DNA from: Minisyncoccota bacterium
GTDB lineage: Bacteria > Patescibacteriota > Microgenomatia > PFEM01 > JAFGMK01
Assembly (NCBI GenBank): GCA_016927565.1
Contig: JAFGMK010000024.1
Span: 6,105 to 70,104, forward strand
Direction: 5' to 3'
Length of the DNA: 64,000 nt
The stretch's first letter is position 1; every line of letters starts with the position of its first letter. The notes below the pieces were generated by a model, which saw only the letters and a program-made list of their open reading frames with translations, did no database searches and was not told where the DNA came from. Below are positions 5,088-51,749 of this stretch, piece by piece. Both the position numbers and the translations under genes were made by a program.

Positions 5088-5404
5088 TAAATCGCTTCTT
5101 CTATCAACTTCCTATACCCTTCTTTTCCGGGAAAACCCACCGATCGCTTTATCTCCTCACCTTGTTTAAAAATCAGCACTGTCGGAATACTCATCACCTG
5201 ATGCTTCTTGGCTATCTCCGGATTCTGATCAATATCCAGCTTTCCTACTTTGAGTTTACCTTCGTATTCTTTGGCCAGCTCCTCAATTACCGGCCCAGCC
5301 ATTTGGCAGGGGCCGCACCAAACCGCAAAAAAATCAACCAGAACCGGCAAATCAGCCTCTTCAACTTCTTTATTAAAATTTTCGTCATTTAAAATTAACA
5401 TCAC
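5087..5404 (-). CDS. trxA: thioredoxin
   Basis: WCGPCQ active site; 105 aa. Its stop overlaps the trxB start by 1 nt (TAATG), consistent with translational coupling. Confidence 0.9.
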   Translation of the reverse strand: MMLILNDENFNKEVEEADLPVLVDFFAVWCGPCQMAGPVIEELAKEYEGKLKVGKLDIDQNPEIAKKHQVMSIPTVLIFKQGEEIKRSVGFPGKEGYRKLIEEAI

Positions 5405-34103: not shown

Positions 34104-35132
34104 TTAAGCCAATCCCATTGCTTTTTTAACCTCTTTTAAGGTTTTCTGTGCCTCGGCCTGAGCAGTTTGGCTGCCTTTTTTAATAATTTCCTCGATTGCC
34201 TCCGGTTGAGATTCGTATTTCCTTCTTCTGGCCCGAATAGGGTCTAAGAACAAGTTCAAGGCCTTGACTAATTTTTCCTTTACCTCAACATCGCCGACCT
34301 GACCTTTCTGATACCTCTGTTTAAGCCTTTCAACTTCTTCCTGATTGTTGTTAAAGGCCTCGTGATAAACAAAAACCGGATTTCCCTCAACGTGGCCCGG
34401 ATCAGTTGGATGAACACGAGTCGGATCAGTGTACATTGCCATTACTTTCCGCCTGACCTCATTAGCATTATCGGAAAGATAAATGCAGTTTCCTACTGAT
34501 TTGCTCATTTTGGTTTGACCGTCAGTCCCCGGTAAAGTCGGCACCTCTCCAATCAAGGCTTCAGGAAAGGGAAAAATTTCACCGTAAAGCAAATTAAAAC
34601 GCTTGGCAATTACCCGCGTAAGTTCAATGTGACTTTCCTGATCTTTGCCCACAGGAACCAAATTTCCCTTAACCATTAAAATATCAGCTGCTTGCAAAAC
34701 CGGATAAGTTAAGAGGCCGAGGGACGGACTCTGAATCTTTAGATCATGCATTACCTCTTTTAAAGTCGGCACCCGCTGACAGCGAGGTACTGAAACCAGC
34801 ATCGAAAATAAAAGTGCCAGATAAGCTACTTCCGGTACGAGTGACTGCTGGTAAATAACCGCCTTTCCGGGATCAATGCCGACCGAAAGATAATCTAAAA
34901 CCAAATCGTGAATATTTTGCTTAACCTTGGCGATTTTCTCCTTCTCAATTCGAGTTGTAAGAACATGAAGATCGGCAATAATAAAAAAGCATTCATATCG
35001 ATCTTGAAGCCTAACCCGATTAGCCAGAGTGCCGACATAATGGCCCAAATGAAGTTTCCCGGTTGGCCGGTCGCCGGTAAGAATTCTTTTTTTAGCTTTC
35101 ATCTTTTCTCCTTTTCTTTTCAATTCTAACAT
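34104..35132 (-). CDS. trpS: tryptophanyl-tRNA synthetase
   Basis: TGDRPTGKLHLGHYVG (HIGH-type motif) and KMSKS. The start is probably the internal Met (MKAKKRIL) near 35102. Confidence 0.9.
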   Translation of the reverse strand: MLELKRKGEKMKAKKRILTGDRPTGKLHLGHYVGTLANRVRLQDRYECFFIIADLHVLTTRIEKEKIAKVKQNIHDLVLDYLSVGIDPGKAVIYQQSLVPEVAYLALLFSMLVSVPRCQRVPTLKEVMHDLKIQSPSLGLLTYPVLQAADILMVKGNLVPVGKDQESHIELTRVIAKRFNLLYGEIFPFPEALIGEVPTLPGTDGQTKMSKSVGNCIYLSDNANEVRRKVMAMYTDPTRVHPTDPGHVEGNPVFVYHEAFNNNQEEVERLKQRYQKGQVGDVEVKEKLVKALNLFLDPIRARRRKYESQPEAIEEIIKKGSQTAQAEAQKTLKEVKKAMGLA

Positions 35133-35147
35133 GTTTATTCGCTGATT

Positions 35148-36053
35148 TTAGCCGCCAATCCTGACTCCCAGGCATTGTTCGCATCCGACTCTGAATTGGT
35201 CATAAATCATTCCCAAACCAGACAGAGAAAGGATTTCCTGTTGACGAGCAGTTAATTGGGGCCGCCTCATCTCAGACACATAACCGCGCCCCTTCTTCAC
35301 TCCCTGAATGAATCGATCCGGCGGATTATCAAAAAAAACAACATTTGATCCCGATTCCCCAAAAACAGGCCCCTGACTCCAATCAGTCAAACCAGGATGA
35401 TAAACCAGTTCTTCGCTCCCAATTGCAGCAAACAAACGGGCTATTACCTCTCCAGGATCATTATACCTGATTGTTTCTGGAACATAGGGAATTACCGGAA
35501 TGCCTTTCTGATCCGCCCGCCTTTTAATCGCCACTGTTTGATAATAAGCCTGAATTAATCTTTCTTCCGAAACGGAGCCCCACAAACGCTGCCAAGAATC
35601 AAGCGTTTCCTCCGGCCGCCGCAAAATTGTCACCACTTGCAGCTTGTCTTTTGGATACCCCCGCCTTAATAAAAGATCAACCGGATCAAAATATTCAATG
35701 TCAGTTTCAACTCCCAAAGTCTCCTTAGAAAAAGCCAGTGAATTTTCTTTAATGACCCACTTTACCCGGCCGCCCTCCAGAGACGCCCGGCCCATTGACT
35801 TAAATGGCTGCATATAGGAAAAATGGCCCGTCAGCGCCAAAACATTACTCAGGGCTGTTGTTCCACTTCGGCAAGGGCCCACCACCACCACCAGCAAAGG
35901 CACCTCTCCATCAGGAAGAAAAACATTTTCTAAAAGAGGTTCGTAATTTGTTAAATAGTCATTCGAACAACAACCCTTCAGAATTGAAGCCAGACCAAAC
36001 TTCACTCTGATCCCCGTTTGGTTCAGAGCCTCCAACAACTTCCGATCTTTCAA
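35148..36053 (-). CDS. sulfotransferase-family-like protein
   Basis: LLVVVVGPCRSGTTAL resembles the 5'-PSB P-loop (PKSGTTW) of PAPS sulfotransferases. The rest is unassigned. Confidence 0.45.
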   Translation of the reverse strand: MKDRKLLEALNQTGIRVKFGLASILKGCCSNDYLTNYEPLLENVFLPDGEVPLLVVVVGPCRSGTTALSNVLALTGHFSYMQPFKSMGRASLEGGRVKWVIKENSLAFSKETLGVETDIEYFDPVDLLLRRGYPKDKLQVVTILRRPEETLDSWQRLWGSVSEERLIQAYYQTVAIKRRADQKGIPVIPYVPETIRYNDPGEVIARLFAAIGSEELVYHPGLTDWSQGPVFGESGSNVVFFDNPPDRFIQGVKKGRGYVSEMRRPQLTARQQEILSLSGLGMIYDQFRVGCEQCLGVRIGG

Positions 36054-36095
36054 CTTCTCGTCTTTCTCTTCCGGTCATATTTTCTTCCTTCTTTT

Positions 36096-36121
36096 ATTTC
36101 GATATATCAATATATCGAAAT
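36096..36121. promoter_or_regulatory. perfect 26-bp palindrome (12-bp arms, 2-bp spacer): candidate operator in a divergent promoter region
   Basis: ATTTCGATATAT-CA-ATATATCGAAAT. It lies between the sulfotransferase-like gene (start 36053, minus) and the nitroreductase gene (start 36411, plus). Confidence 0.5.
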
Positions 36122-36211
36122 CCTAGTGGAAACTATTCACTCACGCACACATTGCGATTCCCCCGCGGGTCCAGCGATATCTGATCTTTCTCCGGCGCCG
36201 TCAGCTTGAAA

Positions 36212-36268
36212 AAAGCCCGCTGCCACTAAAAAACCCGCTGTCAGCGGGTTTCTAGTTTCTTTTTATTC
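36212..36268 (+). terminator. GC-rich hairpin followed by a T-tract (intrinsic-terminator-like) with an alternative upstream pairing partner
   Basis: AACCCGCTG-T-CAGCGGGTT followed by TCTAGTTTCTTTTTATT. An upstream AGCCCGCTGCC could pair with the same 3' arm instead. Confidence 0.45.
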
Positions 36269-36410
36269 AAATTTTATCCATGACCAAACCGCCGACAGCT
36301 TATCTGGTATCGGCGGACCACCAAGCAGAATCTTGCTTAAAGTGAGTCATAATGAACTTATCTTAGCAAATTCTTTGAAAAAGTCAATCCTATTGGCTAT
36401 GATATGATTA

Positions 36411-37139
36411 ATGAAGAAGCTAATTTTAATCTTTCTTGTCATGGGCTTAGCTTCAATTTTGATTAGTTTTTTAAGCTTGCTGCCATTTCCCCGGAAGAGA
36501 ACCATGGTTCCGATTCGCCAAAATCCTAAAGGGCAAACAATTAGCCTCCCTCTCCCCCAACTTGATAGCAGCGTCAGTTTAGAAGAAGCAATCTCTAAAA
36601 GAAGGTCAAAAAGAAACTTCAAAAACGACCGCCTGACTCTTCAACAAGTTAGCCAAATTCTCTGGGCAGCCCAGGGAATAACGGACCAGAAAAATAACCT
36701 TCGCACCGCTCCCTCAGCCGGCGCCCTCTATCCTCTTGATCTTTACCTTGTTGTCGGTGAAGAAAAAGTCACCGGACTAACCGCCGGTGTTTACCACTAT
36801 CTCTCTCAAATACACGAGCTAGAAAGAATCCTTGAAAAAGATCTCCGGGATTCACTCATGAAGGCTTCTTTATTTCAAGTTTATGTTAAAAAAGCCCCGA
36901 TCATTCTAATAATCACCGTTGAATACGAAAGAACCACTCAAAAATACGGCAAACGCGGGGTTCAATATGCCCATATGGAAGCCGGCCACGTCGGCCAAAA
37001 TGTCGCTCTCCAGGTCACCAGTTTAGACCTGGGAACGGTGACGGTCGGCGCTTTCGAGCCGGAAAAAATCAAAAAAATTCTCAACCTACCGACCAACTAC
37101 CAACCTCTCTATGTCATGCCCATCGGCCAAACAGAATAG
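36411..37139 (+). CDS. nitroreductase-family (SagB-type) oxidoreductase with N-terminal signal/TM
   Basis: RRSKRNFKNDRLTLQQVSQILWAAQG and a later YAHMEAGHVGQN motif are typical of the nitroreductase/SagB fold. Confidence 0.7.
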   Translation: MKKLILIFLVMGLASILISFLSLLPFPRKRTMVPIRQNPKGQTISLPLPQLDSSVSLEEAISKRRSKRNFKNDRLTLQQVSQILWAAQGITDQKNNLRTAPSAGALYPLDLYLVVGEEKVTGLTAGVYHYLSQIHELERILEKDLRDSLMKASLFQVYVKKAPIILIITVEYERTTQKYGKRGVQYAHMEAGHVGQNVALQVTSLDLGTVTVGAFEPEKIKKILNLPTNYQPLYVMPIGQTE

Positions 37140-37165
37140 AAAAGCCTCCTAAAAAGATTGTTACG

Positions 37166-37232
37166 AAAACAAAGATAACGATCGCGGCGGCGGAATCGGG
37201 GAAACTCCGGAATGTCAAAGAAATTGGGTAAA
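37166..37232. repeat. GATCCCGGATC-family element, internally deleted copy D
   Basis: aaaacaaagataacgatcgcggcggcggaatcggggaaactccggaatgtcaaagaaa. It shares both flanks (aaaacaaagataacgatc / ctccgga.tgt.aaagaaa) with copy A. Confidence 0.6.
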
Positions 37233-37289
37233 TTACCATGAAACTCATAATTGATTAAGCTCAAAATGTTTGCTAGAATAACCTTAACT

Positions 37290-37362
37290 TGCGGGGTAGT
37301 GTACGGCGGCACGTGAGGCTCATAATCTCACAGACCGGGTTCAACTCCCGGCCCCGCAACCA
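37290..37362 (+). tRNA. tRNA with anticodon CAT (Met or Ile-lysidine type); CCA encoded
   Basis: Hand-folded. Acceptor stem TGCGGGG/CCCCGCA, U8, D-stem GTGT/GCAC, anticodon stem TGAGG/TCTCA with loop CTCATAA, T-stem CCGGG/CCCGG with loop TTCAACT, discriminator A, then CCA. It lacks the three G-C pairs of an initiator. Confidence 0.65.
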
Positions 37363-37405
37363 AACAAAGAGAGCCTCTCCGGCTCTTTTTTGTTTGGTTT
37401 GTGTG
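37363..37405 (+). terminator. intrinsic terminator after the tRNA
   Basis: AACCAAACAAAGAGAGCC-TCTCC-GGCTCTTTTTTGTTTGGTTTG: a long hairpin followed by a T-run. Confidence 0.6.
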
Positions 37406-37430
37406 ATCTTGTGAACCGGCAAAACAAAGA

Positions 37431-37509
37431 TAACGATCCCGGATCATCTGCAGATTTCTTTTCCGGGATCGGGAAAGCTCCGGATTGTTAAAGAAAGTAA
37501 ATCGTTGCC
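37431..37509. repeat. GATCCCGGATC-family hairpin element, full copy A
   Basis: aaagataaCGATCCCGGAtcatctgcagatttcttTCCGGGATCGggaaagctccggattgttaaagaaag. A 10-bp perfect stem, a 17-nt loop, and a trailing CCGGATT. Confidence 0.7.
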
Positions 37510-37563
37510 AATAGCAGTTTTTTCTTGTTCAAACCACTTTTGCCTGATATAATTTCTTCACCG

Positions 37564-37635
37564 GCTAGGGTAGCTCAGGGGTAGAGCAATCGTTTCATAA
37601 GCGATGGGTCGCCGGTTCAAATCCGGCCCCTAGCA
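37564..37635 (+). tRNA. tRNA with anticodon CAT (Met/Ile2 type); no encoded CCA
   Basis: GCTAGGG-TA-GCTC-AGGGGTA-GAGC-A-ATCGT-TTCATAA-GCGAT-GGGTC-GCCGG-TTCAAAT-CCGGC-CCCTAGC-A. A canonical 72-nt cloverleaf. G1-C72 paired and no GGG/CCC in the anticodon stem, so an elongator type. Confidence 0.8.
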
Positions 37636-37647
37636 CAATAATTACTT

Positions 37648-38046
37648 TTACCAGCCAAAAACCTCCAGCCACTTTTGCCAATTTGGAGTTGGCAACAAGG
37701 CTTCTTCTTCTTGAGTTTGGCCTAGGTCGGGCGGCAAGACAACCACAACCTCACCCTCTTTAGCCATATTAAGTTTGTCTCTCGCCTGTTTTTCAATAAA
37801 AGCCTCAGACTCGACATGTTCTCTTTTCTGAAGCAACTCTTCCTGTTCTGCCTGCAGCCTGGCAAGCTCTTCCTGAGCCCGGCCTACTTCCTTTTCCGCC
37901 CGAAAGAGACGAAAAATATTCCGCAGCAAACCTGAGATCATTAACAAGCCCAAAAATGAAGCCAGAATTAAGCCTAATCTTTTTTTTAAAAAAGACCTTT
38001 TTTGAGGCATAATCACTCCCCCTAAGCATCCTAGCCCGCCGGCCAT
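37648..38046 (-). CDS. FtsB/DivIC-like septum-formation initiator
   Basis: N-terminal TM, a coiled-coil segment (RAEKEVGRAQEELARLQAEQEELLQKRE), then ARDKLNMAKEGEVVVV, which is typical of the FtsB/DivIC C-terminus. Confidence 0.55.
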   Translation of the reverse strand: MAGGLGCLGGVIMPQKRSFLKKRLGLILASFLGLLMISGLLRNIFRLFRAEKEVGRAQEELARLQAEQEELLQKREHVESEAFIEKQARDKLNMAKEGEVVVVLPPDLGQTQEEEALLPTPNWQKWLEVFGW

Positions 38047-38201
38047 ACCGAAGTCAATCCGACTTAACTGTTCAGACCCTGGGAAAGCTTTGCTTGTCTA
38101 CGCCGAACCACACACTTTAAGGTAAAATAAAAGACACTTCGCAGGAGTGATTTCACTTTTTTTCTCTCCCAAGTCTGAACTCTTATAACCCAACCCCACT
38201 C

Positions 38202-38230
38202 TTGACAATAGGATCTCTGACTGCTATTAT
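38202..38230 (+). promoter_or_regulatory. sigma70-like promoter for the recombinase gene, followed by tandem TTATAGGATA boxes
   Basis: TTGACA (38202-38207), a 17-nt spacer, TATTAT (38225-38230). Then ttTTATAGGATAtctTTATAGGATAcc and a GAGGAAA RBS 7 nt before the ATG at 38284. Confidence 0.5.
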
Positions 38231-38283
38231 AGGGCAGTTTTATAGGATATCTTTATAGGATACCTTCCCGAGGAAATTTTCAA

Positions 38284-39150
38284 ATGAATAGCAATCTTGA
38301 CTCGCTTGAGACTGCCCACAAAAGGCTGGTTAACCATCTAAAAAACAAGGGCCGCGCTCAGGCAACTATCCTTGCCTACCGGAAGGATATTGAACAGTTA
38401 GTCGCTTTTCTAAAAGACAAAGGCATTAGTCAGACAACTTCAGTTACTTCCGACCACATTGAAGAATTCAAAAAAAGTCTGATGGAAAAAAAATACACTG
38501 CCAAGTCGGTTTCAAGAAAGCTCAATGCCATTAAAACTTTCTTTAAATTCCTGGAAGAAGAAGGCGTCCTGCTCTTAAACCCGGCCACAGCCGTTGCCCA
38601 CCCGAAATACAAAATTAAGGCACCGCGGATTCTTTCCCAGATGGAATACCGGGCCATCCGAGACGCCGCCAGGGAAGACACTCGTATTTCCACAATAATT
38701 GAACTTTTACTTCAAACCGGAATGAGAATCGGCGAATTAGCCCGGCTGGAAACCGGCGATGCTAATGAAAAAACCTTAACCATCCGAGGCTATGAATCTC
38801 ATAAACAAAGAGACATTCCGCTGAACCGATCGGCCCGAAAAGCCCTGGAAGCCTACCTTGAAACCAGACCCAAAGTCCGCACCCGATCGTTATTTGTCAC
38901 CAAAAACGGCCGGCCGTTTTTAGTCAGAAACATCAGAAGCGCAATTGAACGCTATTTCCGTATCGCCGGTTTAGAAAATGCCAAAGTTAACGATCTCAGA
39001 CATACCTTTATTGCCCACCAATTAGGTGCCGGCAACTCCGTTGTCCTGATTCAAAAATTAGTTGGACACAAAAGACTTTCCACTACTGAAAGATATTTGG
39101 AATTCGTCGAAAGCACCTCTTCTGAAGAAGTTAAGATCAAAGAATTGTAG
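38284..39150 (+). CDS. tyrosine recombinase, XerC/XerD family
   Basis: An N-terminal SAM-like core-binding domain. The catalytic region shows R...HTFIAHQLGAGNSVVLIQKLVGHKRLSTTERY (R-H-R-Y tetrad with the terminal Tyr). Confidence 0.85.
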   Translation: MNSNLDSLETAHKRLVNHLKNKGRAQATILAYRKDIEQLVAFLKDKGISQTTSVTSDHIEEFKKSLMEKKYTAKSVSRKLNAIKTFFKFLEEEGVLLLNPATAVAHPKYKIKAPRILSQMEYRAIRDAAREDTRISTIIELLLQTGMRIGELARLETGDANEKTLTIRGYESHKQRDIPLNRSARKALEAYLETRPKVRTRSLFVTKNGRPFLVRNIRSAIERYFRIAGLENAKVNDLRHTFIAHQLGAGNSVVLIQKLVGHKRLSTTERYLEFVESTSSEEVKIKEL

Positions 39151-39194
39151 CTAAATCAAAATCTCCGAAGCCTAACCTTATCCAAAATACCCTG

Positions 39195-39266
39195 TGCGCC
39201 TGCTTGGATTCGAACCAAGAACCCTCGACTTATAAGATCGATGCTCTACCGTTGAGCTACAGGCGC
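39195..39266 (-). tRNA. tRNA-Ile with anticodon UAU (reads AUA)
   Basis: Minus-strand fold: GCGCCTG-TA-GCTC-AACGGTA-GAGC-A-TCGAT-CTTATAA-GTCGA-GGGTT-CTTGG-TTCGAAT-CCAAG-CAGGCGC-A. Anticodon loop C-T-[TAT]-A-A. No encoded CCA. Confidence 0.8.
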
Positions 39267-39295
39267 AAAGCAATTAGCGATTTCGGAACAATCAA

Positions 39296-41629
39296 TTATA
39301 ACTTGGCCCGCTGGGCAATTTCTGATTCCACTAACTGCCTGTCCTGACCGTATTTCAACCGGGAAAGATTCCTTACCATTTCCCCTACCCTGGGATCTTT
39401 CATCTTTTCCAAAGCAGCCATGTCCCGATAAAGATCAACTGAAAAAGGCGGCACCGGCTCATTCCTGACAATCGTTTTCATATAAATGTGGTAGCGCTCG
39501 ATATTCAGAAGATCGTCTTCAGCAAAAGTGGGCTGGAATTCATGAGTTAAATAAGAAGCATCATTCACTCCCACCCGAAAAGACATAATCGTTCCCACAT
39601 TTCCGAAAATGGCATTTTTAACCTCCTCATCCATCTGCCCGATAAATTGATTGGCAACGGTTAAATTCAGCCGGTATTTCCGGGCTTCTGAGAGAATCTG
39701 GGCAAAATCCGGAGTGGCAAAGTTTTGAAATTCATCAACATAAAGATAAAAATCGCGCCGCTGGTCCTCAGGAATATCCGCCCGGCTCATCGCCGCCATT
39801 AACAATTTCGGCACAAAAACCAAACCCAAAAAAGAACTGTTCTCTTCGCCGATCTTCCCTTTAGCCAAATTAATTATCAAAATCTTCCCTTCGTCCATTG
39901 CCCGCCGGAAATCAAAAGAAGACTTTGATTGGCCGATAATATTCCGCATTGTTTTATTGGTAACAAAGCGGCCGAATTTAGATACGATGTAGTCAAGCAC
40001 TTCGCTTTTATGAAAGTCTGAAGTCTGGGCAATCTGGTCGGTCCAGTAACGTTTAACCATCGGGTCTTTAACCTTAGGCAAAAGCTCCTGAACATATTTA
40101 GCATCAGTCAGGCAACGGACAATTTCGACGAAGCTGCTTCCCTCCTCACACATGACTGTCAACATGGCATTCCTGATCGCATGCTCAAACCGGGGACCGA
40201 TAATGCCGGTTTTATAAGGGTCATAAAGTTTGTACATTAAATTTATAATCGCCCCGGTAACAAAATGCTTTTGCTCTTCATTCTGAACTTCAAGCAAGTT
40301 AAAACCCATCGGCCTTTCGGTATCCGAGGGGTCAAAGTAAATTACATCCTCGGCTCTTTCCGGCGGAATAAATTCAAGCAGACTTTCCGCCAGATCATGA
40401 GGATCAATTAAGCAAATTCCTTTCCCGGCCCGAATGTCTTGAAGAATCATATCTTTTAAAAGCTCGGTTTTGCCGACCCCGGTTTTACCAATCACATAAA
40501 CATGGCGGCGGCGGTCCTTATCGCTCAGATAGACCGGCCGGCTCATTCCCCGGTAAGTCGATTTGCCGACATAAAGACCGCTCTTGGGAATCTGAACCGG
40601 CGCCGGTGCTGTTTTGGCATAAAGCCAGTGAATGTGAGGCGTTTCGACTGTTTTATTGGGAAAGTGAAAAATGGTTGCCAGCTCTTCTGAAGAAAGAATT
40701 GAGTGGCCCATTCCCATATAGACCAGCGGCATATAGCGATAAATAAAATCAATCATAAATAATTTTTTAAACCAGATCTTACTGGTTTTAAGCCCGTTCA
40801 GATTAGAGGAAAACTGCTCAAAAGAAGACTTGATGTTTTCCAGATGAGCTTCAGCCTGTTCCTCGGTGGTTGAAGAAACCACAATCCGAATCAAAGTCTC
40901 AAAACCGGGCTTACTGGTTTTACTTTCGATTGCTTCCAAAGTTTTAGCATCGACTTTAAAAGAAGCTTTTTCAACATCTGCCTCTTCCTTTTTTGTTTTG
41001 GAGATAAATGACTTGCCCGCACTCTGCCAACTGCTTCCGGCCGGAACTACATTAATTTGAATTACCGCCCCTTCTCCTTCACTCATCTTCGCCAGTGAAG
41101 TAGTAATCAGGGAAAGCGGGTCAGTTGCTAATTCTCGGTAAGACTTAAGAGGATAATAAGAATCTTTACTCAACTGAAGCTGGGCAAAGGCAACCTTCCC
41201 TTCCTGAGAAAAAATATTGTATTCAGAAACTTTCTTAAGTTCGGCAGACGGATAAGCCCCGTAAATTTGCTTTTCAATAAAATCCTGAAGATCCTTAGGA
41301 ACCGAAATGTAAAAGCGGATATCTTCGGGCCGGGCAACAATTTCAAAACAAAGGTGATTGGGAGGCTTAAGGTTTAAAAAATCGCTGCTTGTTTTAATTG
41401 AATTCAAAGACGCAAAAAACTGTTCGGCAGTATCGATTTTAGTTTCATTATTAAAAGGAACTGCCACCTGCAAAAGAACCGACTGAAGAGATCTTTCTTC
41501 CCGCTTCTGATTTCTTTTCGTCAGCAGGAAAAAATAAAGCCCAATCACCAATCCCAAAAATAAAAAGACCAGAACACCGATGACGGCAAGGAAAAGACCC
41601 AGATTGCCCGTAAGGGCTTCCATATTCAT
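39296..41629 (-). CDS. membrane-anchored P-loop NTPase of the FtsK/HerA/VirB4-TraG type (conjugation/type-IV-secretion-like ATPase)
   Basis: A single N-terminal TM helix, then about 340 aa of unknown domain, then Walker A YVIGKTGVGKT followed by ICLIDPHDL (like the HerA/TraD -DPKGE- segment) and Walker B LYVDEFQNF; 777 aa. Confidence 0.55.
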   Translation of the reverse strand: MNMEALTGNLGLFLAVIGVLVFLFLGLVIGLYFFLLTKRNQKREERSLQSVLLQVAVPFNNETKIDTAEQFFASLNSIKTSSDFLNLKPPNHLCFEIVARPEDIRFYISVPKDLQDFIEKQIYGAYPSAELKKVSEYNIFSQEGKVAFAQLQLSKDSYYPLKSYRELATDPLSLITTSLAKMSEGEGAVIQINVVPAGSSWQSAGKSFISKTKKEEADVEKASFKVDAKTLEAIESKTSKPGFETLIRIVVSSTTEEQAEAHLENIKSSFEQFSSNLNGLKTSKIWFKKLFMIDFIYRYMPLVYMGMGHSILSSEELATIFHFPNKTVETPHIHWLYAKTAPAPVQIPKSGLYVGKSTYRGMSRPVYLSDKDRRRHVYVIGKTGVGKTELLKDMILQDIRAGKGICLIDPHDLAESLLEFIPPERAEDVIYFDPSDTERPMGFNLLEVQNEEQKHFVTGAIINLMYKLYDPYKTGIIGPRFEHAIRNAMLTVMCEEGSSFVEIVRCLTDAKYVQELLPKVKDPMVKRYWTDQIAQTSDFHKSEVLDYIVSKFGRFVTNKTMRNIIGQSKSSFDFRRAMDEGKILIINLAKGKIGEENSSFLGLVFVPKLLMAAMSRADIPEDQRRDFYLYVDEFQNFATPDFAQILSEARKYRLNLTVANQFIGQMDEEVKNAIFGNVGTIMSFRVGVNDASYLTHEFQPTFAEDDLLNIERYHIYMKTIVRNEPVPPFSVDLYRDMAALEKMKDPRVGEMVRNLSRLKYGQDRQLVESEIAQRAKL

Positions 41630-41640
41630 AATAACTTATC

Positions 41641-42186
41641 TCAATTCTCGTAATCTTCTGCCGAGGAGTTCGTTGCCATCCCCGGCTTATTTTTGTAAAC
41701 TTGATTTTGATCGGCCCGGACCGCTTGGACTCGAGGTTGATTTTTAGTCTTTTTTTGTTTCGGGGGTTTTCTGTTAAAAACACCCCCCATCAACCTAATC
41801 AGACGGATACACCATTCCGCCAGCCAGCGGATAGAATCAACCATTTTATGAGTCGTTCCTTCTCTGATTTCCTCTTCGGTCAAAGGCAAAACAATTCCTG
41901 TCGCGTCATCACCGGAATTGCTGACTAAAACCTGGCCCGTTTGATCATCCGTCACCGACTGAGTAAGCCGGGTCGCCGCCCCGGGAACCGGCTGGGCCAT
42001 CTCAATTTCTCTGGGAATTTCCGGAATATCAAGCCTCTCAACTACCGGAAATTGATTCAGCCCCTTGCCGAAAACTCCTTCCACAACCTTTTGCCTCTCT
42101 TCAAGTGAAACTGGTTTTGTTTCTTTTTCTTTGTCTGTCAACGTCACAGTAAAATGAAGAACCTGATCCTGATTGTTCTTCTCCAA
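41641..42186 (-). CDS. hypothetical protein (181 aa), with an acidic N-terminus and a basic KKTKNQ tail
   Basis: ORF only. Transcribed first in the same minus-strand run, with its stop 12 nt from the ATPase start. Confidence 0.45.
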   Translation of the reverse strand: MEKNNQDQVLHFTVTLTDKEKETKPVSLEERQKVVEGVFGKGLNQFPVVERLDIPEIPREIEMAQPVPGAATRLTQSVTDDQTGQVLVSNSGDDATGIVLPLTEEEIREGTTHKMVDSIRWLAEWCIRLIRLMGGVFNRKPPKQKKTKNQPRVQAVRADQNQVYKNKPGMATNSSAEDYEN

Positions 42187-42424: not shown

Positions 42425-43216
42425 TCAAATAAAATCCCCGCCCACTCCCCGCAATTTAGTTTTTGGGATCATTTCTGAAATCATTTTTTTAAAAGCTTTC
42501 AACTGGGAAACAGCAAAAGGCTCTATTTCATTGAATCCAGGGTCAAGGCAGTTTTTGGGTTGAAAAGACTGAAGAACCCAGGAGAAATCTCTAATTTTCC
42601 GACCGCAACCGGCAAACAGGTTTTTTAAATCCCGAGCCATTGTCAGCAAAACCTTTTCATCATGGATGGTCGGTACTATGGTTGTCCGGAATTCAAACGG
42701 CAAGCCAGAGTCTATTATCAACCGCATAGATTCCTTAATTCCAGCGGCTAACGATCCCGGATCGTCTGCAGATTTCGATCCTGGATCGGATTGCCCCCCG
42801 GATTTAATTCCAACTACATTTTCATAATCCGAAAATGTAGTCTTATAATCCATCGCCCAAAAATCTACCAGTTTTGCCTCAAGCAATTTTTTGATGACCT
42901 CAGGCCGACTACCGTTAGTTTCTATCATTATCTTAAAACCCAAAGCTTTAACCTTAGTTGAAAACCCCAAAAGGTCTGGCTGGAGAGTCGGTTCACCACC
43001 GGTAACCGCCACACCATCAATCCATTTGCTCCGCCGCTTCAAATCCGTCAAAACAATCTTCTCGCTGTGATGTTTCAGCTTTTTACTATTGATTTTCACC
43101 AGGTCGCGATTGTGGCAAAACGGACAGGCAAAATTGCAGCCCGGGACAAAGATCACTGAAGCAATCTTGGTCGGCCACTCGATCAGAGAGGTTTTTAAAT
43201 AACCGGCAATTTTCAT
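42425..43216 (-). CDS. nrdG: anaerobic ribonucleotide reductase activating protein (radical SAM, NrdG/PflA family) carrying a 20-codon in-frame insertion
   Basis: CNFACPFCHN radical-SAM cluster motif near the N-terminus. An internal GIK-SGGQSDPGSKSADDPGSLAAG-IKESM segment is encoded by a copy of the GATCCCGGATC repeat element. Confidence 0.8.
   Translation of the reverse strand: MKIAGYLKTSLIEWPTKIASVIFVPGCNFACPFCHNRDLVKINSKKLKHHSEKIVLTDLKRRSKWIDGVAVTGGEPTLQPDLLGFSTKVKALGFKIMIETNGSRPEVIKKLLEAKLVDFWAMDYKTTFSDYENVVGIKSGGQSDPGSKSADDPGSLAAGIKESMRLIIDSGLPFEFRTTIVPTIHDEKVLLTMARDLKNLFAGCGRKIRDFSWVLQSFQPKNCLDPGFNEIEPFAVSQLKAFKKMISEMIPKTKLRGVGGDFI
42748..42808. repeat. GATCCCGGATC-family element, copy B, inside the nrdG coding sequence and flanked by an 8-bp direct repeat TTAATTCC
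   Basis: ctaaCGATCCCGGATCGtctgcagatttCGATCCTGGATCGgattgccccccggattt. TTAATTCC occurs at 42736-42743 and 42804-42811. Confidence 0.7.
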
Positions 43217-43579: not shown

Positions 43580-45733
43580 TTAAAACCGACCCTCATTTTT
43601 GTGACGATCGTTAAGCTCTCCTATCTTACCCTTATTCCAGCGGCTGATACGGGAATAAAAACCGGTCACTCGCGTCACCCCGTCAACTTCTTCCGAGCCG
43701 CACTTAGGACAAGCATCATGAAGGCCCCGTGTTGTCGCCAGACAACAATCACAAATTGTAAATTCCGGCGAAAAGGCAATCAGACCGTTCTGGGTTTGTT
43801 CAAAGGTTTTTTTGACAAAACTCGCAATCGAAACCGGATCCGGGTTCTGTTCCCCCAACCAGAGATGACTAATGGCTCCGGCATCAATTAAAGGATGAAA
43901 AAGGCCTTCTTTGGTCACTCTTTCAATCGGATCAATATTTTCGGAAATATTCAATTGGGTCGAGTTGGTATAGTAAATATAATCATCTTCCCATCGTCCC
44001 TTAATCACTTTCCGTGATTGATCAGGATAAAAACGCTTATCCAGTTTGGCAAAGCGATAAGTCAGTCCTTCAGCCGGAGTCTGTTCCAAAACATAATCCA
44101 TCTTATCCCGCCGGCTCATTTCTTTGGCCTTCTTATTGATGGCCGCCACAATCTTCAAACCCAATTTTAAAGCCTCGTTACTTTCATGCAGCTGTTGTCC
44201 CAGACAATACTCAACTGTTTCATTCACGCCGAAAATACCTACCAGAAACTTGGCTTTTTTAAAGCGGTAATACATTTCAGGATCATCCTTTTGCCGGGTT
44301 GTCAGCGAGCCGAGAGGACCCTGAAGCCCCATCTCAAGAAGTCGTTTAATAAACCGTCTTTTCTGTTGATGGGCTTTGGCTAAAAGTTCCATTCCCTTGT
44401 CAATTTCTTTAAACAGTTTTTCCGATTTACCCTTAGCTTTGTAAGCCATCCGAGGCAGATTCAAGGAAACGTTTTGCATTGCTGAATGGCGCATCTGCCA
44501 GGGTTTTTTGGCTTCCTCGAGATCTTTTTTATTCAGATTGAAAGAAAGCCGGCAGCACTCGGAAATCCGGGCTGTTTTTCCCCGATCCAAAACAAAATAA
44601 GTGTTGCCTCTTTCAGCTGCCACCCGCGAAGCCAGCCGGAGAAACTCCTTATGACCCGGAGTGGCCCAAAATTTTTCCGTAATGTGCAAATTCGGCTTCG
44701 GCCAGAAAAAGGGCCGGCCGGCCCCGTCTCCCTCCAGGTAAATTTCAAAAATGGCTCTTAAGAAATCCTGTGATTCTTTCTCGTAGTCCTGATAATTTTT
44801 GCCGGTATAAACTCCTCCGGGGCCAATGGCCGGAGTTTTGGCAAAATGATCCGGTACTTCCCAGTAAAGGTTAATATCTGAAAAAATTGCTTGCCCCCCC
44901 CGAGCTACATTCTGCATATTAAACTCAAATAAAAGCATTTGAGCCAGCTGCCTTATCTCGGCAAAGGGCATTCCCACCAAATAAGGCGCCATAAAAAGAT
45001 TGACCGCATCAAAACCAATTGCCCCGGCAAAATGAACCTGGAGCATCGCTGCCAGCTTAATAATCTGCAGTATTAAAACCTGAGCATGCTTTGCCGGTTT
45101 GGCCACTGCCAATGACGAGGCAATGTCTAAACCATACTTCTTAACATATTCAATCGATTGACCACAGCAATAAGGCCGATCAATGAAATCGAGATCATGA
45201 AGATGTAAATCCCCCCGAGCATGAGCCTCAGCCACTTCTTGAGAAAAAACTCGACGGAGAGCGTATTCTTTTTTGATATTTCGAGCCAAAGAGAGATTGG
45301 TAGCTTCGGTATTATGAGGAACATTGGCATTAATCCGATTTTGTTCCGTCAACATTTTATGGACATCATAAATCGGGACTCCTAAACGAACGTGCTTATA
45401 GTAATATTTTTCCAAGCCTCGAGATAATAATTCAGCATTAGTCATCTCCCGAATTAAATTGGTAGAAACATGTTTAACTTTGGAGTCAACGATTTGTTTT
45501 TCCACTTCCCGGGCAATCCTCATTGCCAGATATTCATCCATCCCGGTTTCAATAATCAGCCTTTTGGCAATTTGGGTCACATCCCATTTTTTTAAAGCCT
45601 CATCAGAAGTAGAAACAAAAAACATCACATCAGTGGCCTGATGTTTTTGGGCATTAGCCAGGTATTTAGCCTGCTTTCTGGTTAAGCCGCTGCCGTTTTT
45701 GCCATTTTGATATTTATCTATTTCGCTAGGCAT
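43580..45733 (-). CDS. nrdD: anaerobic ribonucleoside-triphosphate reductase (class III large subunit), with an N-terminal ATP-cone-like region
   Basis: HLHDLDF motif, a C-terminal zinc ribbon (CDCC...CPKC), and the glycyl-radical motif TRVTGFY; 717 aa. Confidence 0.85.
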   Translation of the reverse strand: MPSEIDKYQNGKNGSGLTRKQAKYLANAQKHQATDVMFFVSTSDEALKKWDVTQIAKRLIIETGMDEYLAMRIAREVEKQIVDSKVKHVSTNLIREMTNAELLSRGLEKYYYKHVRLGVPIYDVHKMLTEQNRINANVPHNTEATNLSLARNIKKEYALRRVFSQEVAEAHARGDLHLHDLDFIDRPYCCGQSIEYVKKYGLDIASSLAVAKPAKHAQVLILQIIKLAAMLQVHFAGAIGFDAVNLFMAPYLVGMPFAEIRQLAQMLLFEFNMQNVARGGQAIFSDINLYWEVPDHFAKTPAIGPGGVYTGKNYQDYEKESQDFLRAIFEIYLEGDGAGRPFFWPKPNLHITEKFWATPGHKEFLRLASRVAAERGNTYFVLDRGKTARISECCRLSFNLNKKDLEEAKKPWQMRHSAMQNVSLNLPRMAYKAKGKSEKLFKEIDKGMELLAKAHQQKRRFIKRLLEMGLQGPLGSLTTRQKDDPEMYYRFKKAKFLVGIFGVNETVEYCLGQQLHESNEALKLGLKIVAAINKKAKEMSRRDKMDYVLEQTPAEGLTYRFAKLDKRFYPDQSRKVIKGRWEDDYIYYTNSTQLNISENIDPIERVTKEGLFHPLIDAGAISHLWLGEQNPDPVSIASFVKKTFEQTQNGLIAFSPEFTICDCCLATTRGLHDACPKCGSEEVDGVTRVTGFYSRISRWNKGKIGELNDRHKNEGRF

Positions 45734-45774: not shown

Positions 45775-47745
45775 TCAAATATTTTTATTTCGATGCCGGT
45801 CCCTGAGTTCCGCCTTCTTGCCCCGCCCCCATGAACTGGTAAAGGTATAATAGCCGGTAATCCTCGTAATTCCATCTACCTTTCTGGAATGACAATAAGG
45901 ACAACTCCCCAATAATCCCCGAGCTAAACGCCGGCACTTTAAGCACAAGGTAAATTCGGGTGAAAGGGCAACTTGGGTATTTTGGGTCCGGTTAAAAGTC
46001 TTTTTAATTAACCGGCCGACAGAAGCAGGACTCGGCTCGCGCTCCCCTAACCAAAGATGGGTAATATTACCGCCTTCAATTAGAGGATGGAAAAGGCCTT
46101 CCTTTTCAATTCTGTCTAAGGGATCAATCTCGGCATCAACATCTAAATGAGTTGAGTTGGTATAATAAACTGAACCGGATTCAGGATCACCGTGAACAAT
46201 CTTAAGGGCTTGTTTGGGAAACCGGCTCAAATCAAGCCGGGCAAAACGATAGCAGGTTGACTCAGCCGGATCCTGTTCAAGAATGATTTTTAACCGGCTT
46301 TTTTTGCTTTCCTGATCGCAAAGATATTTCATGAAAGCCACTATTTTCAGACCAAATTTCAGCGCCTGATCGCTCTCATGCATCTTCTGGCCCAAATGCG
46401 CCCGAACACAGTCGCCCACCCCCAAGACACCGACCAAATAGGCCATTTTGGTAAAACGCAAATATGATTCTTTTTCACCCTCCTGTTTAACCGTCAACAA
46501 TCCCAAAGGGCCGGTTTCTCGCCGATCCAAGAGTTTTTTTAAGAAGGCTCCTTTTTGTTTATGAGCCTCGAAAACCAGTTGCATCCTTTTTCTGATCAAT
46601 TCAAAAAGCTTTTTTTCATTTCCTTTGGCCTGATAAGCAATCCTAGGCAAATTAAGAGAAATATAAGGAGCTGCGGAAAAACGCATCCGCCAAGGTTTTT
46701 TAGTGTCTTTTAAATCCTCACTGGAAAGAGTGAAAGAGACCCGGCAGCATTCAGAAATCTTGGCAGTTTTTCCCCGATCCAGCATAAAGTAAGGATTACC
46801 TGTTTTGGTCGCCACTTCGCAAACATGATTCAAAAACCGACTATGCCCCGGAGTGGCCCAAAACTTGTCGGTAATATGGAGATTGGGCTTGGGCCAAAAA
46901 AAAGGCGAACCCTGGCTGTCGCCTTTTTTATAAACGGAAAAGATTTGCCAAACAAAGCTCTGAGCTTCTTTTTCATAATCACCATAAACCTTGCCGGTAT
47001 ATTGACCCCGGGGACCAATAGCCGGAACCTTTTCAAAATGAGCCGGCACCTCCCAATAAAGATTGAGATCAGAAAAAATCGGCTGACCGCCATGAGGTCC
47101 GATAGTTTGATTAAATTGATGAATCAACTTTTGCGCCGCCTGATAGATTTCACTATCGGAGAGGCCTGTCAAATAAGGCGCCAAAAATAAATTAACCGCG
47201 TCCCAGCCGATCGCCCCGCCAAAATTAGCCCTGAGAGCCAAAGAAAACCGGTAAAGATGATCCAAAGCTGAGTCAATGTGAGCGGCCGGCCTGGTCGCCG
47301 CAAAACTGGCATAACGGTTAAGACCGTATTTTTTAACATACTCAACGCTCTGGCCGGAACAATAAGGCCGGTCAATAAAACCTAATTTATGAAGATGCAA
47401 ATCTCCCCGCCGGTGAGCCCGAGCCACTGATTTAGAATAAACCTTATTTAGGGCATACTCTTTTTTAACAAACTCGGACAGAGTAAAACTTGTTCCCTCA
47501 GGAGTGTTGGGCATATTGGCATCGCTCCGGCTACCTTCTTTCGCGATGACAGTCTCAATCTCCTCTAAAGAAAGAGAGACTCTTCCGTCTTCACCTGTAT
47601 CCTCAAAATGGAAAAGGCCATTCCCGTTACTGTTTTGGGAATGATTGTCTTTTTTCTGAACTTTAGGACCGGGTAATATCCGGGCCAATTGCCGGGAAAT
47701 TCCCAAAGAAAAATCGGTCACATCAAGTCGTTTTTTTTGAACCAT
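45775..47745 (-). CDS. nrdD: second class III ribonucleotide reductase paralog (no ATP-cone)
   Basis: HLHKLGF, a zinc ribbon (CLKC...CPYC), and the Gly-radical motif TRITGYY; 656 aa. Collinear with the upstream copy across most of its length. Confidence 0.8.
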   Translation of the reverse strand: MVQKKRLDVTDFSLGISRQLARILPGPKVQKKDNHSQNSNGNGLFHFEDTGEDGRVSLSLEEIETVIAKEGSRSDANMPNTPEGTSFTLSEFVKKEYALNKVYSKSVARAHRRGDLHLHKLGFIDRPYCSGQSVEYVKKYGLNRYASFAATRPAAHIDSALDHLYRFSLALRANFGGAIGWDAVNLFLAPYLTGLSDSEIYQAAQKLIHQFNQTIGPHGGQPIFSDLNLYWEVPAHFEKVPAIGPRGQYTGKVYGDYEKEAQSFVWQIFSVYKKGDSQGSPFFWPKPNLHITDKFWATPGHSRFLNHVCEVATKTGNPYFMLDRGKTAKISECCRVSFTLSSEDLKDTKKPWRMRFSAAPYISLNLPRIAYQAKGNEKKLFELIRKRMQLVFEAHKQKGAFLKKLLDRRETGPLGLLTVKQEGEKESYLRFTKMAYLVGVLGVGDCVRAHLGQKMHESDQALKFGLKIVAFMKYLCDQESKKSRLKIILEQDPAESTCYRFARLDLSRFPKQALKIVHGDPESGSVYYTNSTHLDVDAEIDPLDRIEKEGLFHPLIEGGNITHLWLGEREPSPASVGRLIKKTFNRTQNTQVALSPEFTLCLKCRRLARGLLGSCPYCHSRKVDGITRITGYYTFTSSWGRGKKAELRDRHRNKNI

Positions 47746-49490: not shown

Positions 49491-51749
49491 TTGATGAAAA
49501 CTGAAAAGAAGGCCAGACCGGCTGAAAAAAGCACCCTCCGGTCCAAGAAAAAACGTAAAACTCGCCAATTTCCAAAAACCAAAAAGAAGCGCTTAATAAA
49601 AAAAGGGAGATTTTATATTATTCTTCTTCTCCTGCTTTCGATTTTCAGCTTTTGGCTTTTCATTTTAAAAGACCTTCCCTCCCCAACCAAACTTGAAAAT
49701 TACGACTTTCCCGTCTCAACCCAAATCTTTGACTCAAAAAAAAGGCTTCTTTATGAAATCTATGCCGAAAAAAAAAGGACCCCAATCAAAATTGAAAACA
49801 TTCCTGATCATCTCAAATGGGCCACCATTGCTTCCGAAGATAAAGATTTTTATCATCACCGGGGCTTTGCCTTCCGGGGAATTATTAGGGGTTTTTATAA
49901 TACCATTTTCAAAAAGAGCCTCCAAGGCGGCTCTACTATTACTCAGCAATTAATCAAAAATGCCCTCCTGACTCAAGAACGGACCATTCAAAGAAAGATT
50001 CGGGAGGCAATCCTGGCCTGGCTCACAGAAATTATCTATTCTAAAGACCAAATTTTAGAGATGTATTTCAACCAGGTTCCTTACGGCGGAACTGCCTGGG
50101 GGATCGAAACTGCCGCTCAAACCTACTTCAATAAAAGTACCCCCGATTTAACTCTGGCTGAGTCAGCTCTTTTAGCCGGACTACCAGCCTCTCCGACCCG
50201 TTTTTCTCCTTTTGGCGCTCACCCCGACTTAGCCATAAACCGCCAGAAAAGAGTTCTTCAAAGAATGGTTGAGGACGGCCACATTTCTTTGGAGGATGCC
50301 CAAGAGGCAGAAAAAGAAGCTCTGAACTTTGCTCCCATGGAAATTAGCATCAAAGCTCCTCATTTCGTTCTCTGGATCAAAGAAAAACTAGTCGAGCAAT
50401 ACGGCGAAAGACTGGTTGAGCAAGGCGGTTTAAGAATTACTACCACCCTTGATCTTGACCTGCAAGAAAAAGCCCAGCAAATCATCCATGCCGAGATTGA
50501 TAAACTTGAAAATCTCAAAGTGGCTAACGGCGCCGGCCTGATAACTGCTCCAGAAACCGGAGCAATTTTGGCGCTTATAGGCTCTCACGATTATTTTGAT
50601 CTTAAAAATGACGGCAATGTCAACGTTGTCCTCCGGCCAAGGCAGCCCGGTTCAGCCATCAAACCTTTAAACTACGCTTTAGCTTTTGAAAACAAAACTC
50701 TTACTCCGGCCTCAGTGATTAACGATATTCCGACTTGTTTCAAAGTTGCCGGCCAAAAGTCCTACTGTCCGGTCAATTATGACGGCCAGTTTCACGGCCC
50801 GGTTCAAACCAGATTTGCCCTCGGCAATTCTTATAACATTCCCGCGGTTAAAACGCTGGTTTTAAACGGACTTGAAGAATTCATCAACTTTGCCAAGAAA
50901 ATGGGGATCACCAGCTTTACCGAGCCGAAAAACTACGGCCTTTCCCTTACTCTGGGCGGCGGCGAGGTTACAATGTATGATTTGACAACTGCTTTTTCTG
51001 CCTTCGCCAATAACGGGATCAGACAAAACCTCTATGCCATTGAAAAAGTCGAAAACTGGCAGGGGAAAGTCCTATATCAACATCAGGAGTCACCCGGAGC
51101 CAGAGTTATCTCGCCGGAGACAGCTTACCTGATCAGCCATATCCTTTCAGATAACAACGCCCGCACCGCCGCCTTTGGCAGCCATTCACAATTGCTTATC
51201 AAAGATCATCCTGAAGTAGCAGTCAAAACCGGAACCACTAATGAAAAAAAGGATAATTGGGCAATCGGCTTCACTCCGGACTTTTCGGTCAGCGTTTGGG
51301 TAGGTAACAACGACAACACTCCCATGAGCCAGATCGCCTCGGGCACCACAGGCGCCTCATCAATTTGGAATCAGATCATGAGTCTCGTACTTAAAGATAA
51401 AAAGTCGCATTGGCCGCCAAAACCGGAAGGAATAGTTGGAATTCAGATTTGTGCTGTTTCCGGTCTTAAACCGGCTTCGAATGACAGCTGTCCGGTCCGA
51501 TTCGAATACTTCGATAAAGACACTCTGCCTGAAGAAATCGAAAATTTAGAAAGAGGCATTGCCGTTGACAAAACCAGCGGCCAACTGGCAAATAGCGACA
51601 CCTTGCCGGAAAATATCGAAATCCAGAATCATCGGGTAGTTTGGGACAAGCTGGGCACCCCCTATTGTTTGGACTGCTCTTTTCCCACCCAAGCCCAAAT
51701 TCTGGACTCCAGCCGGGTCCTCAGAAATTTTCCCCAACCAACACCCTGA
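49491..51749 (+). CDS. class A penicillin-binding protein (glycosyltransferase GT51 plus transpeptidase)
   Basis: GT51 motifs (EDKDFYHHRGF, GGSTITQQLIKN, RKIREA), transpeptidase SxxK (GSAIKP), SYN and KTGT. Confidence 0.9.
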   Translation: MMKTEKKARPAEKSTLRSKKKRKTRQFPKTKKKRLIKKGRFYIILLLLLSIFSFWLFILKDLPSPTKLENYDFPVSTQIFDSKKRLLYEIYAEKKRTPIKIENIPDHLKWATIASEDKDFYHHRGFAFRGIIRGFYNTIFKKSLQGGSTITQQLIKNALLTQERTIQRKIREAILAWLTEIIYSKDQILEMYFNQVPYGGTAWGIETAAQTYFNKSTPDLTLAESALLAGLPASPTRFSPFGAHPDLAINRQKRVLQRMVEDGHISLEDAQEAEKEALNFAPMEISIKAPHFVLWIKEKLVEQYGERLVEQGGLRITTTLDLDLQEKAQQIIHAEIDKLENLKVANGAGLITAPETGAILALIGSHDYFDLKNDGNVNVVLRPRQPGSAIKPLNYALAFENKTLTPASVINDIPTCFKVAGQKSYCPVNYDGQFHGPVQTRFALGNSYNIPAVKTLVLNGLEEFINFAKKMGITSFTEPKNYGLSLTLGGGEVTMYDLTTAFSAFANNGIRQNLYAIEKVENWQGKVLYQHQESPGARVISPETAYLISHILSDNNARTAAFGSHSQLLIKDHPEVAVKTGTTNEKKDNWAIGFTPDFSVSVWVGNNDNTPMSQIASGTTGASSIWNQIMSLVLKDKKSHWPPKPEGIVGIQICAVSGLKPASNDSCPVRFEYFDKDTLPEEIENLERGIAVDKTSGQLANSDTLPENIEIQNHRVVWDKLGTPYCLDCSFPTQAQILDSSRVLRNFPQPTP

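Follow-up and report, generated by a model that had tools for sequence, protein, structure and literature searches.

The locus studied here raises the question of how a bacterium whose DNA encodes an isoleucine tRNA with a UAU anticodon reads the codon AUA, keeps it apart from the methionine codon AUG, and whether such a tRNA stands in for the usual bacterial AUA reader or works beside it. TilS and lysidine are regarded as an essential, stable bacterial trait, and UAU tRNA-Ile as a curiosity of a handful of genera. TilS was found in 98.18% of 1093 bacteria and was termed "evolutionarily stable" (PMC6063277). Nine tilS-less species in three clades had been recorded by 2013 (PMC3575796); UAU tRNA-Ile was counted in 19 species of tRNADB-CE in 2014 (PMC4013482) and, in the tRNAscan-SE 2.0 survey of 2021, in 17 genomes of Bifidobacterium, Mycoplasma, and Neorickettsia (PMC8450103). 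A 2026 preprint describes the bacterial UAU tRNA-Ile as "rare cases". Taniguchi et al. also reported 371 unique tDNA-Ile(TAT) of unknown origin in metagenomes (PMC3575796).

The gene lies at 39195-39266, on the minus strand, in a 64-kb stretch of DNA that was analysed as a whole and is referred to here as the window. Comparison of sequences makes it quite likely that a Microgenomates-group CPR bacterium uses the product of this gene as its isoleucine tRNA for AUA, by the mechanism proposed below and as a trait shared by a whole clade.

Identification of a tRNA-Ile(UAU) gene

An initial annotation, made from the letters of the window, had placed a tRNA-Ile with a UAU anticodon, a canonical fold, and the anticodon loop C-U-UAU-A-A at these positions without giving the strand. 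ARAGORN, run on the 64-kb window, returns a minus-strand tRNA-Ile(tat) at 39194-39266, and Rfam RF00005 matches 39195-39266(-) over all 71 model positions with 74.2 bits (E 2e-14; the gathering score is 29 bits), confirming the gene and assigning it to the minus strand. The tRNA is 72 nt long to the discriminator A73 and its RNA reads GCGCCUG-UA-GCUC-AACGGUA-GAGC-A-UCGAU-CUUAUAA-GUCGA-GGGUU-CUUGG-UUCGAAU-CCAAG-CAGGCGC-A. The anticodon TAT falls at window positions 39234-39232. ARAGORN and Rfam give the loop named in the initial annotation, a 7-nt loop of C32-U33-U34-A35-U36-A37-A38 in which U34-A35-U36 is accompanied by U33 and A37. Folded as a single sequence, the RNA forms a cloverleaf of -30.1 kcal/mol (z = -4.0) that none of 200 shuffles equals. 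Rfam, ARAGORN, and the covariation described below all point to a canonical class I tRNA cloverleaf, and the fold first claimed for the gene stands.

A perfect TATAAT box, recognized by reading the sequence, lies on the minus strand at 39295..39300, 28 nt upstream of the 5' end of the tRNA, and shares bases with the stop codon of the VirD4-like gene that precedes the tRNA. A consensus promoter scan did not flag this box, and a good -35 is absent. It is a possible but weak candidate for the tRNA's own promoter; minus-strand transcription could begin there or run on from the VirD4-like gene. With no CCA encoded (C-A-G stands directly 3' of A73), the trimmed transcript would receive it post-transcriptionally.

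Genomic setting

The window's ORFs are what the chromosome of a small anaerobic bacterium would ordinarily carry, encoding FtsH, TrpRS, DivIC, peptidyl-tRNA hydrolase, ATP-dependent DNA ligase, glycolytic enzymes, two PBP1A, two NrdD with an activase, 2-oxoacid:ferredoxin oxidoreductase, a Xer-type recombinase, and a VirD4/TraG-like ATPase. GC content is even, at 42-46%, with no break around tRNA-Ile(UAU). The window's FtsH is 100% identical to MBN1263655.1, a protein of a Candidatus Pacebacteria MAG, and the next-best among its 120 best matches are named Woesebacteria, Shapirobacteria, and Patescibacteria group. The Shapirobacteria relatives belong to the Patescibacteria/Microgenomates group in NCBI taxonomy. 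These names assign the window to a CPR bacterium of the Microgenomates group.

Immediately upstream of the tRNA lies the VirD4/TraG-like coupling ATPase gene (39296..41629, minus strand), which is syntenic also in relatives L002, L004, and L007. On the other side, a Xer-type tyrosine recombinase gene (38284..39150, plus strand; Pfam PF00589 and PF02899) sits between the tRNA and two Met tRNAs with CAU anticodons, its end 44 bp from the tRNA 3' end. The tryptophanyl-tRNA synthetase gene (TrpRS; 34104..35132, minus strand) is syntenic with the tRNA cluster in 53 related loci. The initiator, CAU, and UAU tRNAs are contiguous in most relatives; in the window, the recombinase and DivIC genes separate the Met tRNAs from an inverted tRNA-Ile(UAU), and this arrangement is a derived local rearrangement.

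AUA codons and isoleucine identity

Use of AUA had been named at the outset as a check on the tRNA, and it came out in the gene's favour. The codon makes up 140 of 19,155 codons in 54 window ORFs (7.3 per 1000), or 11% of Ile codons, and is found in 44 of the 54 genes. Eighteen AUA sites in glutamate dehydrogenase (GDH), class II aldolase, and 5'-3' exonuclease were read against solved homologues. Eight are matched by Ile in one homologue or more, sites in the GDH motif GGIR and the exonuclease motif EADDI among them; four face Val or Leu, six are at variable positions, and none faces Met. When 54 TrpRS orthologues from the clade are compared, AUA codons stand opposite I in 40%, L in 18%, V in 16%, and M in 4%, a profile that resembles the columns of AUU and AUC (I 47-50%, M 3%) and is unlike those of AUG (M 39%). 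Read from these columns, AUA is a standard Ile codon in the window's organism, in need of a reader.

The tRNA itself carries A73, U12-A23, C4-G69, A37, and A38, along with C5-G68. A73 and U12-A23 are invariant across 24 aligned members of its family, A37 and A38 are conserved too, while C4-G69 splits about evenly between C-G and U-A, and the E. coli IleRS element C29-G41 is reversed to G29-C41; all of these are scored against the E. coli IleRS set, which may not be the rules of a CPR IleRS. Together with AUA at Ile-type positions, the elements that are present support the isoleucine identity first assigned to the gene.

We propose that IleRS would charge the tRNA with isoleucine, going by A73, U12-A23, C4-G69, A37, and A38. 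U34 would pair with the third-position A of AUA, and a separate GAU tRNA elsewhere in the genome would read AUU and AUC. A37 probably carries t6A, as in other ANN-reading tRNAs. By analogy with Mycoplasma mobile, AUG may be spared because U34 is unmodified or carries a special modification, IleRS is adapted, and the ribosome discriminates. A weak U31-G39 pair closes the anticodon stem in 18 of the 24 aligned tRNAs and, speculatively, might weaken binding to the near-cognate AUG.

Conservation of the UAU tRNA among relatives

A comparison with relatives had also been suggested, and it supports the gene at two scales. One genome per GTDB species was scanned with the anticodon-arm pattern AGCATCGATCTYATAAGTCGAGG, in which Y admits CAU or UAU. 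Six loci match, and all six have T34 even though C was allowed. Their UAU tRNAs differ from that of the window by paired changes in the acceptor and T stems. Two of the six are named Candidatus Shapirobacteria and four 'uncultured Gammaproteobacteria'. The latter are MAGs titled 'uncultured Gammaproteobacteria bacterium' (L002, L005, L006, and L007; CAZTEW01, CAZCYZ01, CAZKWZ01, and CAYUZS01). Because they share synteny with the window (TrpRS, the VirD4-like gene, and the Met tRNAs), the label is doubtful, and the titles are likely taxonomic mislabels in public records.

JGI metagenome contigs were probed with the D-arm of the clade's conserved initiator-like tRNA, which yielded at least 120 loci. 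Among the matches listed, ARAGORN places a tRNA(UAU) in 63 of 120 loci, the median distance to the initiator being 405 nt; where the listed loci extend at least 2.5 kb on both sides, it is present in 17 of 21, with none nearby in the other four. The 63 listed tRNAs comprise 54 unique sequences, 61 of the 63 carry the loop CUUAUAA, and the usual order in the metagenome loci listed is initiator tRNA, tRNA(CAU), tRNA(UAU). TrpRS of related loci is 37.5-72.6% identical to that of the window, and since identity falls as low as 37.5%, the clade is deep. An alignment of 24 diverse UAU tRNAs of the window's family (family 1) was analysed with RNAalifold, which recovered the cloverleaf with compensatory changes in 15 of 21 pairs. 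Given this covariation and the invariant positions, we take chance, a pseudogene, and recent import to be excluded for the family. Judged by sequence comparison, this deep clade has inherited tRNA-Ile(UAU) and kept it under selection, as the rule and not the exception. The description of UAU as a rare route in bacteria, with which the initial annotation began, holds for bacteria at large (PMC8450103; PMC6063277) but fails inside this lineage.

A second, unrelated UAU tRNA family, with the D-arm GUCGUU..GGAC, a 4-nt variable loop, and U12-G23, occurs 1.5-2.5 kb from the initiator in distant sub-lineages whose TrpRS, where found, is ~38% identical to the window's (L029 5190+, L042 8213-, L059 5074+, L060 8453+, L067 559-, L085 2578-, L094 4785-, and L106 3679-). 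As 12 of 21 pairs covary, this family too is functional. The two unrelated bodies suggest that the AUA reader was replaced or invented twice in the clade.

Some related loci hold other tRNA-derived sequences. Conserved tRNA-like elements lie between tRNA-Met and tRNA-Ile(UAU) in L076 (one copy, 1206-1280(-)) and L086 (two in tandem, 5231-5305(-) and 5309-5383(-)). Their 5' half is that of tRNA-Ile(UAU). In place of the anticodon arm they have a closed hairpin, TCCGAC-GTAC-GTCGGA, that lacks an anticodon loop, and their 3' acceptor strand has degenerated. At L092 334(-), a chimeric tRNA joins the tRNA-Met 5' acceptor strand (GGCAGGG) to a tRNA-Ile(UAU) body with the 3' strand unpaired; either recombination between adjacent tRNA genes produced it or it is an artefact of their assembly.

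The neighbouring CAU tRNAs

Two CAT tRNAs had been noticed nearby, and ARAGORN, which gives a total of three tRNAs for the window, and Rfam locate both on the plus strand, at 37290-37362 and 37564-37636. The first is initiator-like and encodes CCA. Its acceptor stem 2-7/66-71 is, we take it, identical to that of E. coli tRNA-fMet, and the gene is ~95-100% conserved even between lineages of the clade with TrpRS only 38% identical; it is on account of this stem and this near-invariance that we read it as the initiator. It recurs at L004 4935-5007, L005 5342-5411, L007 2279-2349, and the at least 120 metagenome loci. A bacterial initiator tRNA is expected to have a C1xA72 mismatch, three consecutive G-C pairs in the anticodon stem, and A11-U24. 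This one has a U1-A72 pair, U11-A24, a very short D-loop, and an anticodon stem of UGAGG/UCUCA with one G-C (30-40) among 29-41, 30-40, and 31-39, and by its sequence is thus an initiator atypical for bacteria.

The second CAU tRNA (37564..37636, plus strand) belongs to the clade's single non-initiator CAU family, which in the loci listed comprises 79 unique sequences, mostly GGCAGGG.../...CCCUGCU-A. The family has A4-U69 and mostly C3-G70, with U3-A70 in the window copy. In E. coli, C3-G70 is a MetRS element and C4-G69 an IleRS/TilS element. By parsimony, and from the mostly conserved C3-G70 of its family, the second CAU tRNA is best read as the elongator tRNA-Met. No CAU tRNA with the body of the UAU tRNA was found in the related loci listed, where CAU tRNAs reach at most 76% identity to that body, and no third CAU tRNA at any of ~127 related loci. 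The simplest reading of the sequences is a cluster of fMet, Met, and Ile(UAU). The nearby CAT tRNAs are no evidence for the earlier suggestion that both systems may be carried, as one has an initiator stem, the other belongs to a single elongator-Met-like family, and in no related locus listed does a CAU tRNA share the UAU body.

Upstream of each of the two CAU tRNA genes, by ~100-120 nt, stands one copy of a 22-nt direct repeat (AAAACAAAGATAACGATCGCGG, 95% identical) at 37166-37187 and 37421-37442, which may be a shared regulatory element. Each gene also has a TG-extended -10-like box 9-10 nt upstream.

Probable replacement of the lysidine system

Neither a TilS family match nor the SGGxDS PP-loop motif occurs among the ORFs of the 64-kb window. 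The related loci, 735 kb in total, contain 1,121 ORFs of 100 aa or more, and none of these showed a TilS match or a PP-loop either. In many bacteria tilS-hpt lies upstream of ftsH. The corresponding slot in the window holds TrpRS and a 301-aa ORF without a PP-loop, not tilS, and none of the 120 best FtsH homologues contains a TilS domain. In tilS-less bacteria an adapted IleRS is expected, either with a Trp-to-Arg/Lys change in its Zn-binding domain or of type 2. An IleRS gene was found in neither the window nor the related loci; ORFs of 756-787 aa with KMSKS in related loci were considered as IleRS and rejected, being ValRS. The UAU tRNA is deeply conserved, stands beside two Met tRNAs, and has no Ile2-like CAU gene near it, and these points favour replacement of the lysidine system. 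From the 64-kb window and 735 kb of related loci, we judge that there is somewhat better than an even chance that the UAU tRNA replaces, and does not supplement, tRNA-Ile2(CAU) and TilS.

The UAU tRNA could instead be a redundant decoder in an organism that has kept TilS and tRNA-Ile2(CAU), so that LAU and UAU tRNAs both read AUA, as has been proposed for Lactobacillus casei, Cyanothece, and Ferrimonas. In that case Ile2(CAU) would be the second CAU tRNA (37564-37636) or would lie beyond the window, which covers 64 kb of the genome. The former carries U12-A23, C29-G41, and A73, and its comparison with annotated E. coli tRNAs is ambiguous, the matches being prophage- or plasmid-borne and labelled Met or Ile by PGAP depending on the record. 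Bacteria with both systems are documented (PMC3575796), as is TilS in ~98% of those surveyed (PMC6063277). Yet in a streamlined CPR genome an initiator, one CAU, and one UAU tRNA are most simply fMet, Met, and Ile; the CAU family has A4-U69 and mostly the MetRS-type C3-G70, not the C4-G69 Ile/TilS element; and the ~127 related loci offer neither a third CAU tRNA nor a PP-loop gene. We consider redundancy unlikely, though a serious alternative to replacement. Far less credible, and to us barely conceivable, is that the gene is no isoleucine tRNA, being derived from tRNA-Arg(UCU) or tRNA-Met with AUA recoded, or is dead. Its best full-length E. coli match is annotated as a tRNA-Arg (75% identity, E 0.1), its anticodon arm UCGAU-CUUAUAA-GUCGA presumably resembles that of E. 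coli argU, and C29-G41 is absent. However, the AUA codon columns are Ile-like, neither Met- nor Arg-like, the D-loop has U20 in place of the A20 required by ArgRS, position 35 is A and not C, and a dead gene would be at odds with strong covariation and invariant loop nucleotides across 50+ variants.

An auxiliary tRNA brought by a mobile element or phage, outside the core decoding set, is the other reading prompted by the surroundings of the gene: the recombinase gene near its 3' end, the VirD4-like T4SS ATPase gene abutting its 5' side, and two large viral contigs in which a UAU tRNA with the same anticodon arm sits inside tRNA arrays. In L002, moreover, part of the 3' half of tRNA-Ile(UAU) is repeated (93-132; 40 nt, 85% identical) ~40 nt downstream of the intact gene, a pattern as left by integration into a tRNA 3' end. 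We nevertheless hold import to be highly improbable. The marks of a mobile tRNA (att repeats, a composition break, patchy distribution) are not seen for tRNA-Ile(UAU): window 36000-42000 contains no att-like repeat of it, GC runs through the region without a break, and synteny of the tRNA with TrpRS, the Met tRNAs, and the VirD4-like gene extends to relatives with as little as 38% TrpRS identity. The recombinase has the SAM_1 architecture of Xer type, and T4SS genes are ordinary chromosomal genes in Patescibacteria (PMC12102498).

The two viral contigs, from IMG/VR, are 128 kb and 92 kb long. Their tRNA(UAU) lie at L130 3559-3645(-), a copy 87 nt long, and L131 11080-11153(-), in arrays with Leu, Met, and Ser and with Arg and Leu tRNAs, respectively. 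By their sequences, these contigs may belong to phages that infect CPR bacteria and provide an AUA reader.

Comparison with known systems

The tRNA proposed here to replace tRNA-Ile2(CAU) does the same job, that of a dedicated AUA reader, and shares with it A73, U12-A23, C4-G69, and, in the window copy, C5-G68. It differs at position 34, which is encoded as U, so lysidine is neither needed nor possible. In M. mobile, U34 is unmodified, Arg865 of IleRS recognizes UAU, and the ribosome rejects AUG (PMC3575796). The likeness to its tRNA-Ile2(UAU) is that a genome-encoded UAU reads AUA in a small genome, with U33, A37, and A38 common to both, and that the UAU tRNA stands in for tRNA-Ile2(CAU), as it appears to do here. 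M. mobile is one species of Tenericutes, whereas here the phylum is CPR, and more than 50 sequence variants of the tRNA are spread over a deep clade. Of the features that define the M. mobile mechanism (unmodified U34, IleRS Arg865, ribosomal discrimination, no tilS), the comparison here covers the tRNA gene alone.

In Bifidobacterium and Neorickettsia, too, UAU replaces the CAU/lysidine tRNA as a lineage trait (PMC3575796; PMC8450103). These genera rely on a horizontally acquired eukaryote-type (type-2) IleRS, and the likeness to the present case is in the tRNA only. Lactobacillus casei, Cyanothece PCC 7424, and Ferrimonas balearica have both tilS and tRNA-Ile(UAU) (PMC3575796); the UAU tRNA is shared with them, but neither tilS nor an Ile2-type CAU tRNA was seen in the window and related loci. 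Among archaea, Nanoarchaeum equitans and Korarchaeum cryptofilum carry a UAU tRNA in place of the TiaS modified-cytidine system (PMC8450103) and are likewise ultra-small and host-dependent, though they represent another domain, with other tRNA and synthetase families. Nanoarchaeum belongs to DPANN, the ultra-small archaeal group that papers on Patescibacteria pair with CPR. In the open-access literature searched, we found no paper linking lysidine or tilS with Patescibacteria or the candidate phyla radiation, the matches for tilS and Patescibacteria being off-topic. As far as we can tell, the kind of system is known, and its occurrence in a CPR lineage and on this scale is undescribed.

What the analysis adds is a solid extension of a known mechanism to a further lineage, not a new mechanism. 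In its broadest form, which we put forward tentatively and would give a little less than an even chance, a deep Microgenomates branch (Pacebacteria, Shapirobacteria, and Woesebacteria-like) gave up TilS and lysidine for UAU tRNAs, with two unrelated bodies by sub-lineage, beside an atypical initiator tRNA (U1-A72, no triple G-C). If so, AUA/AUG discrimination would be handled differently there, via a new U34 modification, a new IleRS adaptation, or an unusual CPR ribosome. Routine use of UAU in CPR would explain some, at least, of the hundreds of orphan metagenomic tDNA-Ile(TAT), and it is plausible that this clade is the source of many of the 371. It would also provide an independent, ancient, and species-rich natural experiment on the separation of AUA(Ile) from AUG(Met) without a modified cytidine. 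For genome annotation, isotype calling of CAU and UAU tRNAs would be affected. Since tilS is among the standard bacterial marker genes for completeness and phylogeny, such routine use would bear on its value as a marker as well.

Other features of the window

Beyond the tRNA cluster, the window holds tandem NrdD paralogues at 43580-45733(-) and 45775-47745(-) with an NrdG-like radical SAM activase at 42425-43216(-), and tandem class A penicillin-binding protein paralogues at 49491-51749(+) and 51853-54258(+). Duplication of NrdD and of the penicillin-binding protein is unusual for a streamlined CPR genome. Several close FtsH homologues of ~1040-1070 aa (P0003, P0006, P0097, P0099, P0108, and P0115) contain the intein/LAGLIDADG-type domains PF14528 and PF14890, so that FtsH with an intein is present in the clade of the window. 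Other FtsH homologues, 68-78% identical to that of the window, are named Bathyarchaeia, Marinimicrobia, and Nevskiaceae, labels that are likely taxonomic mislabels.
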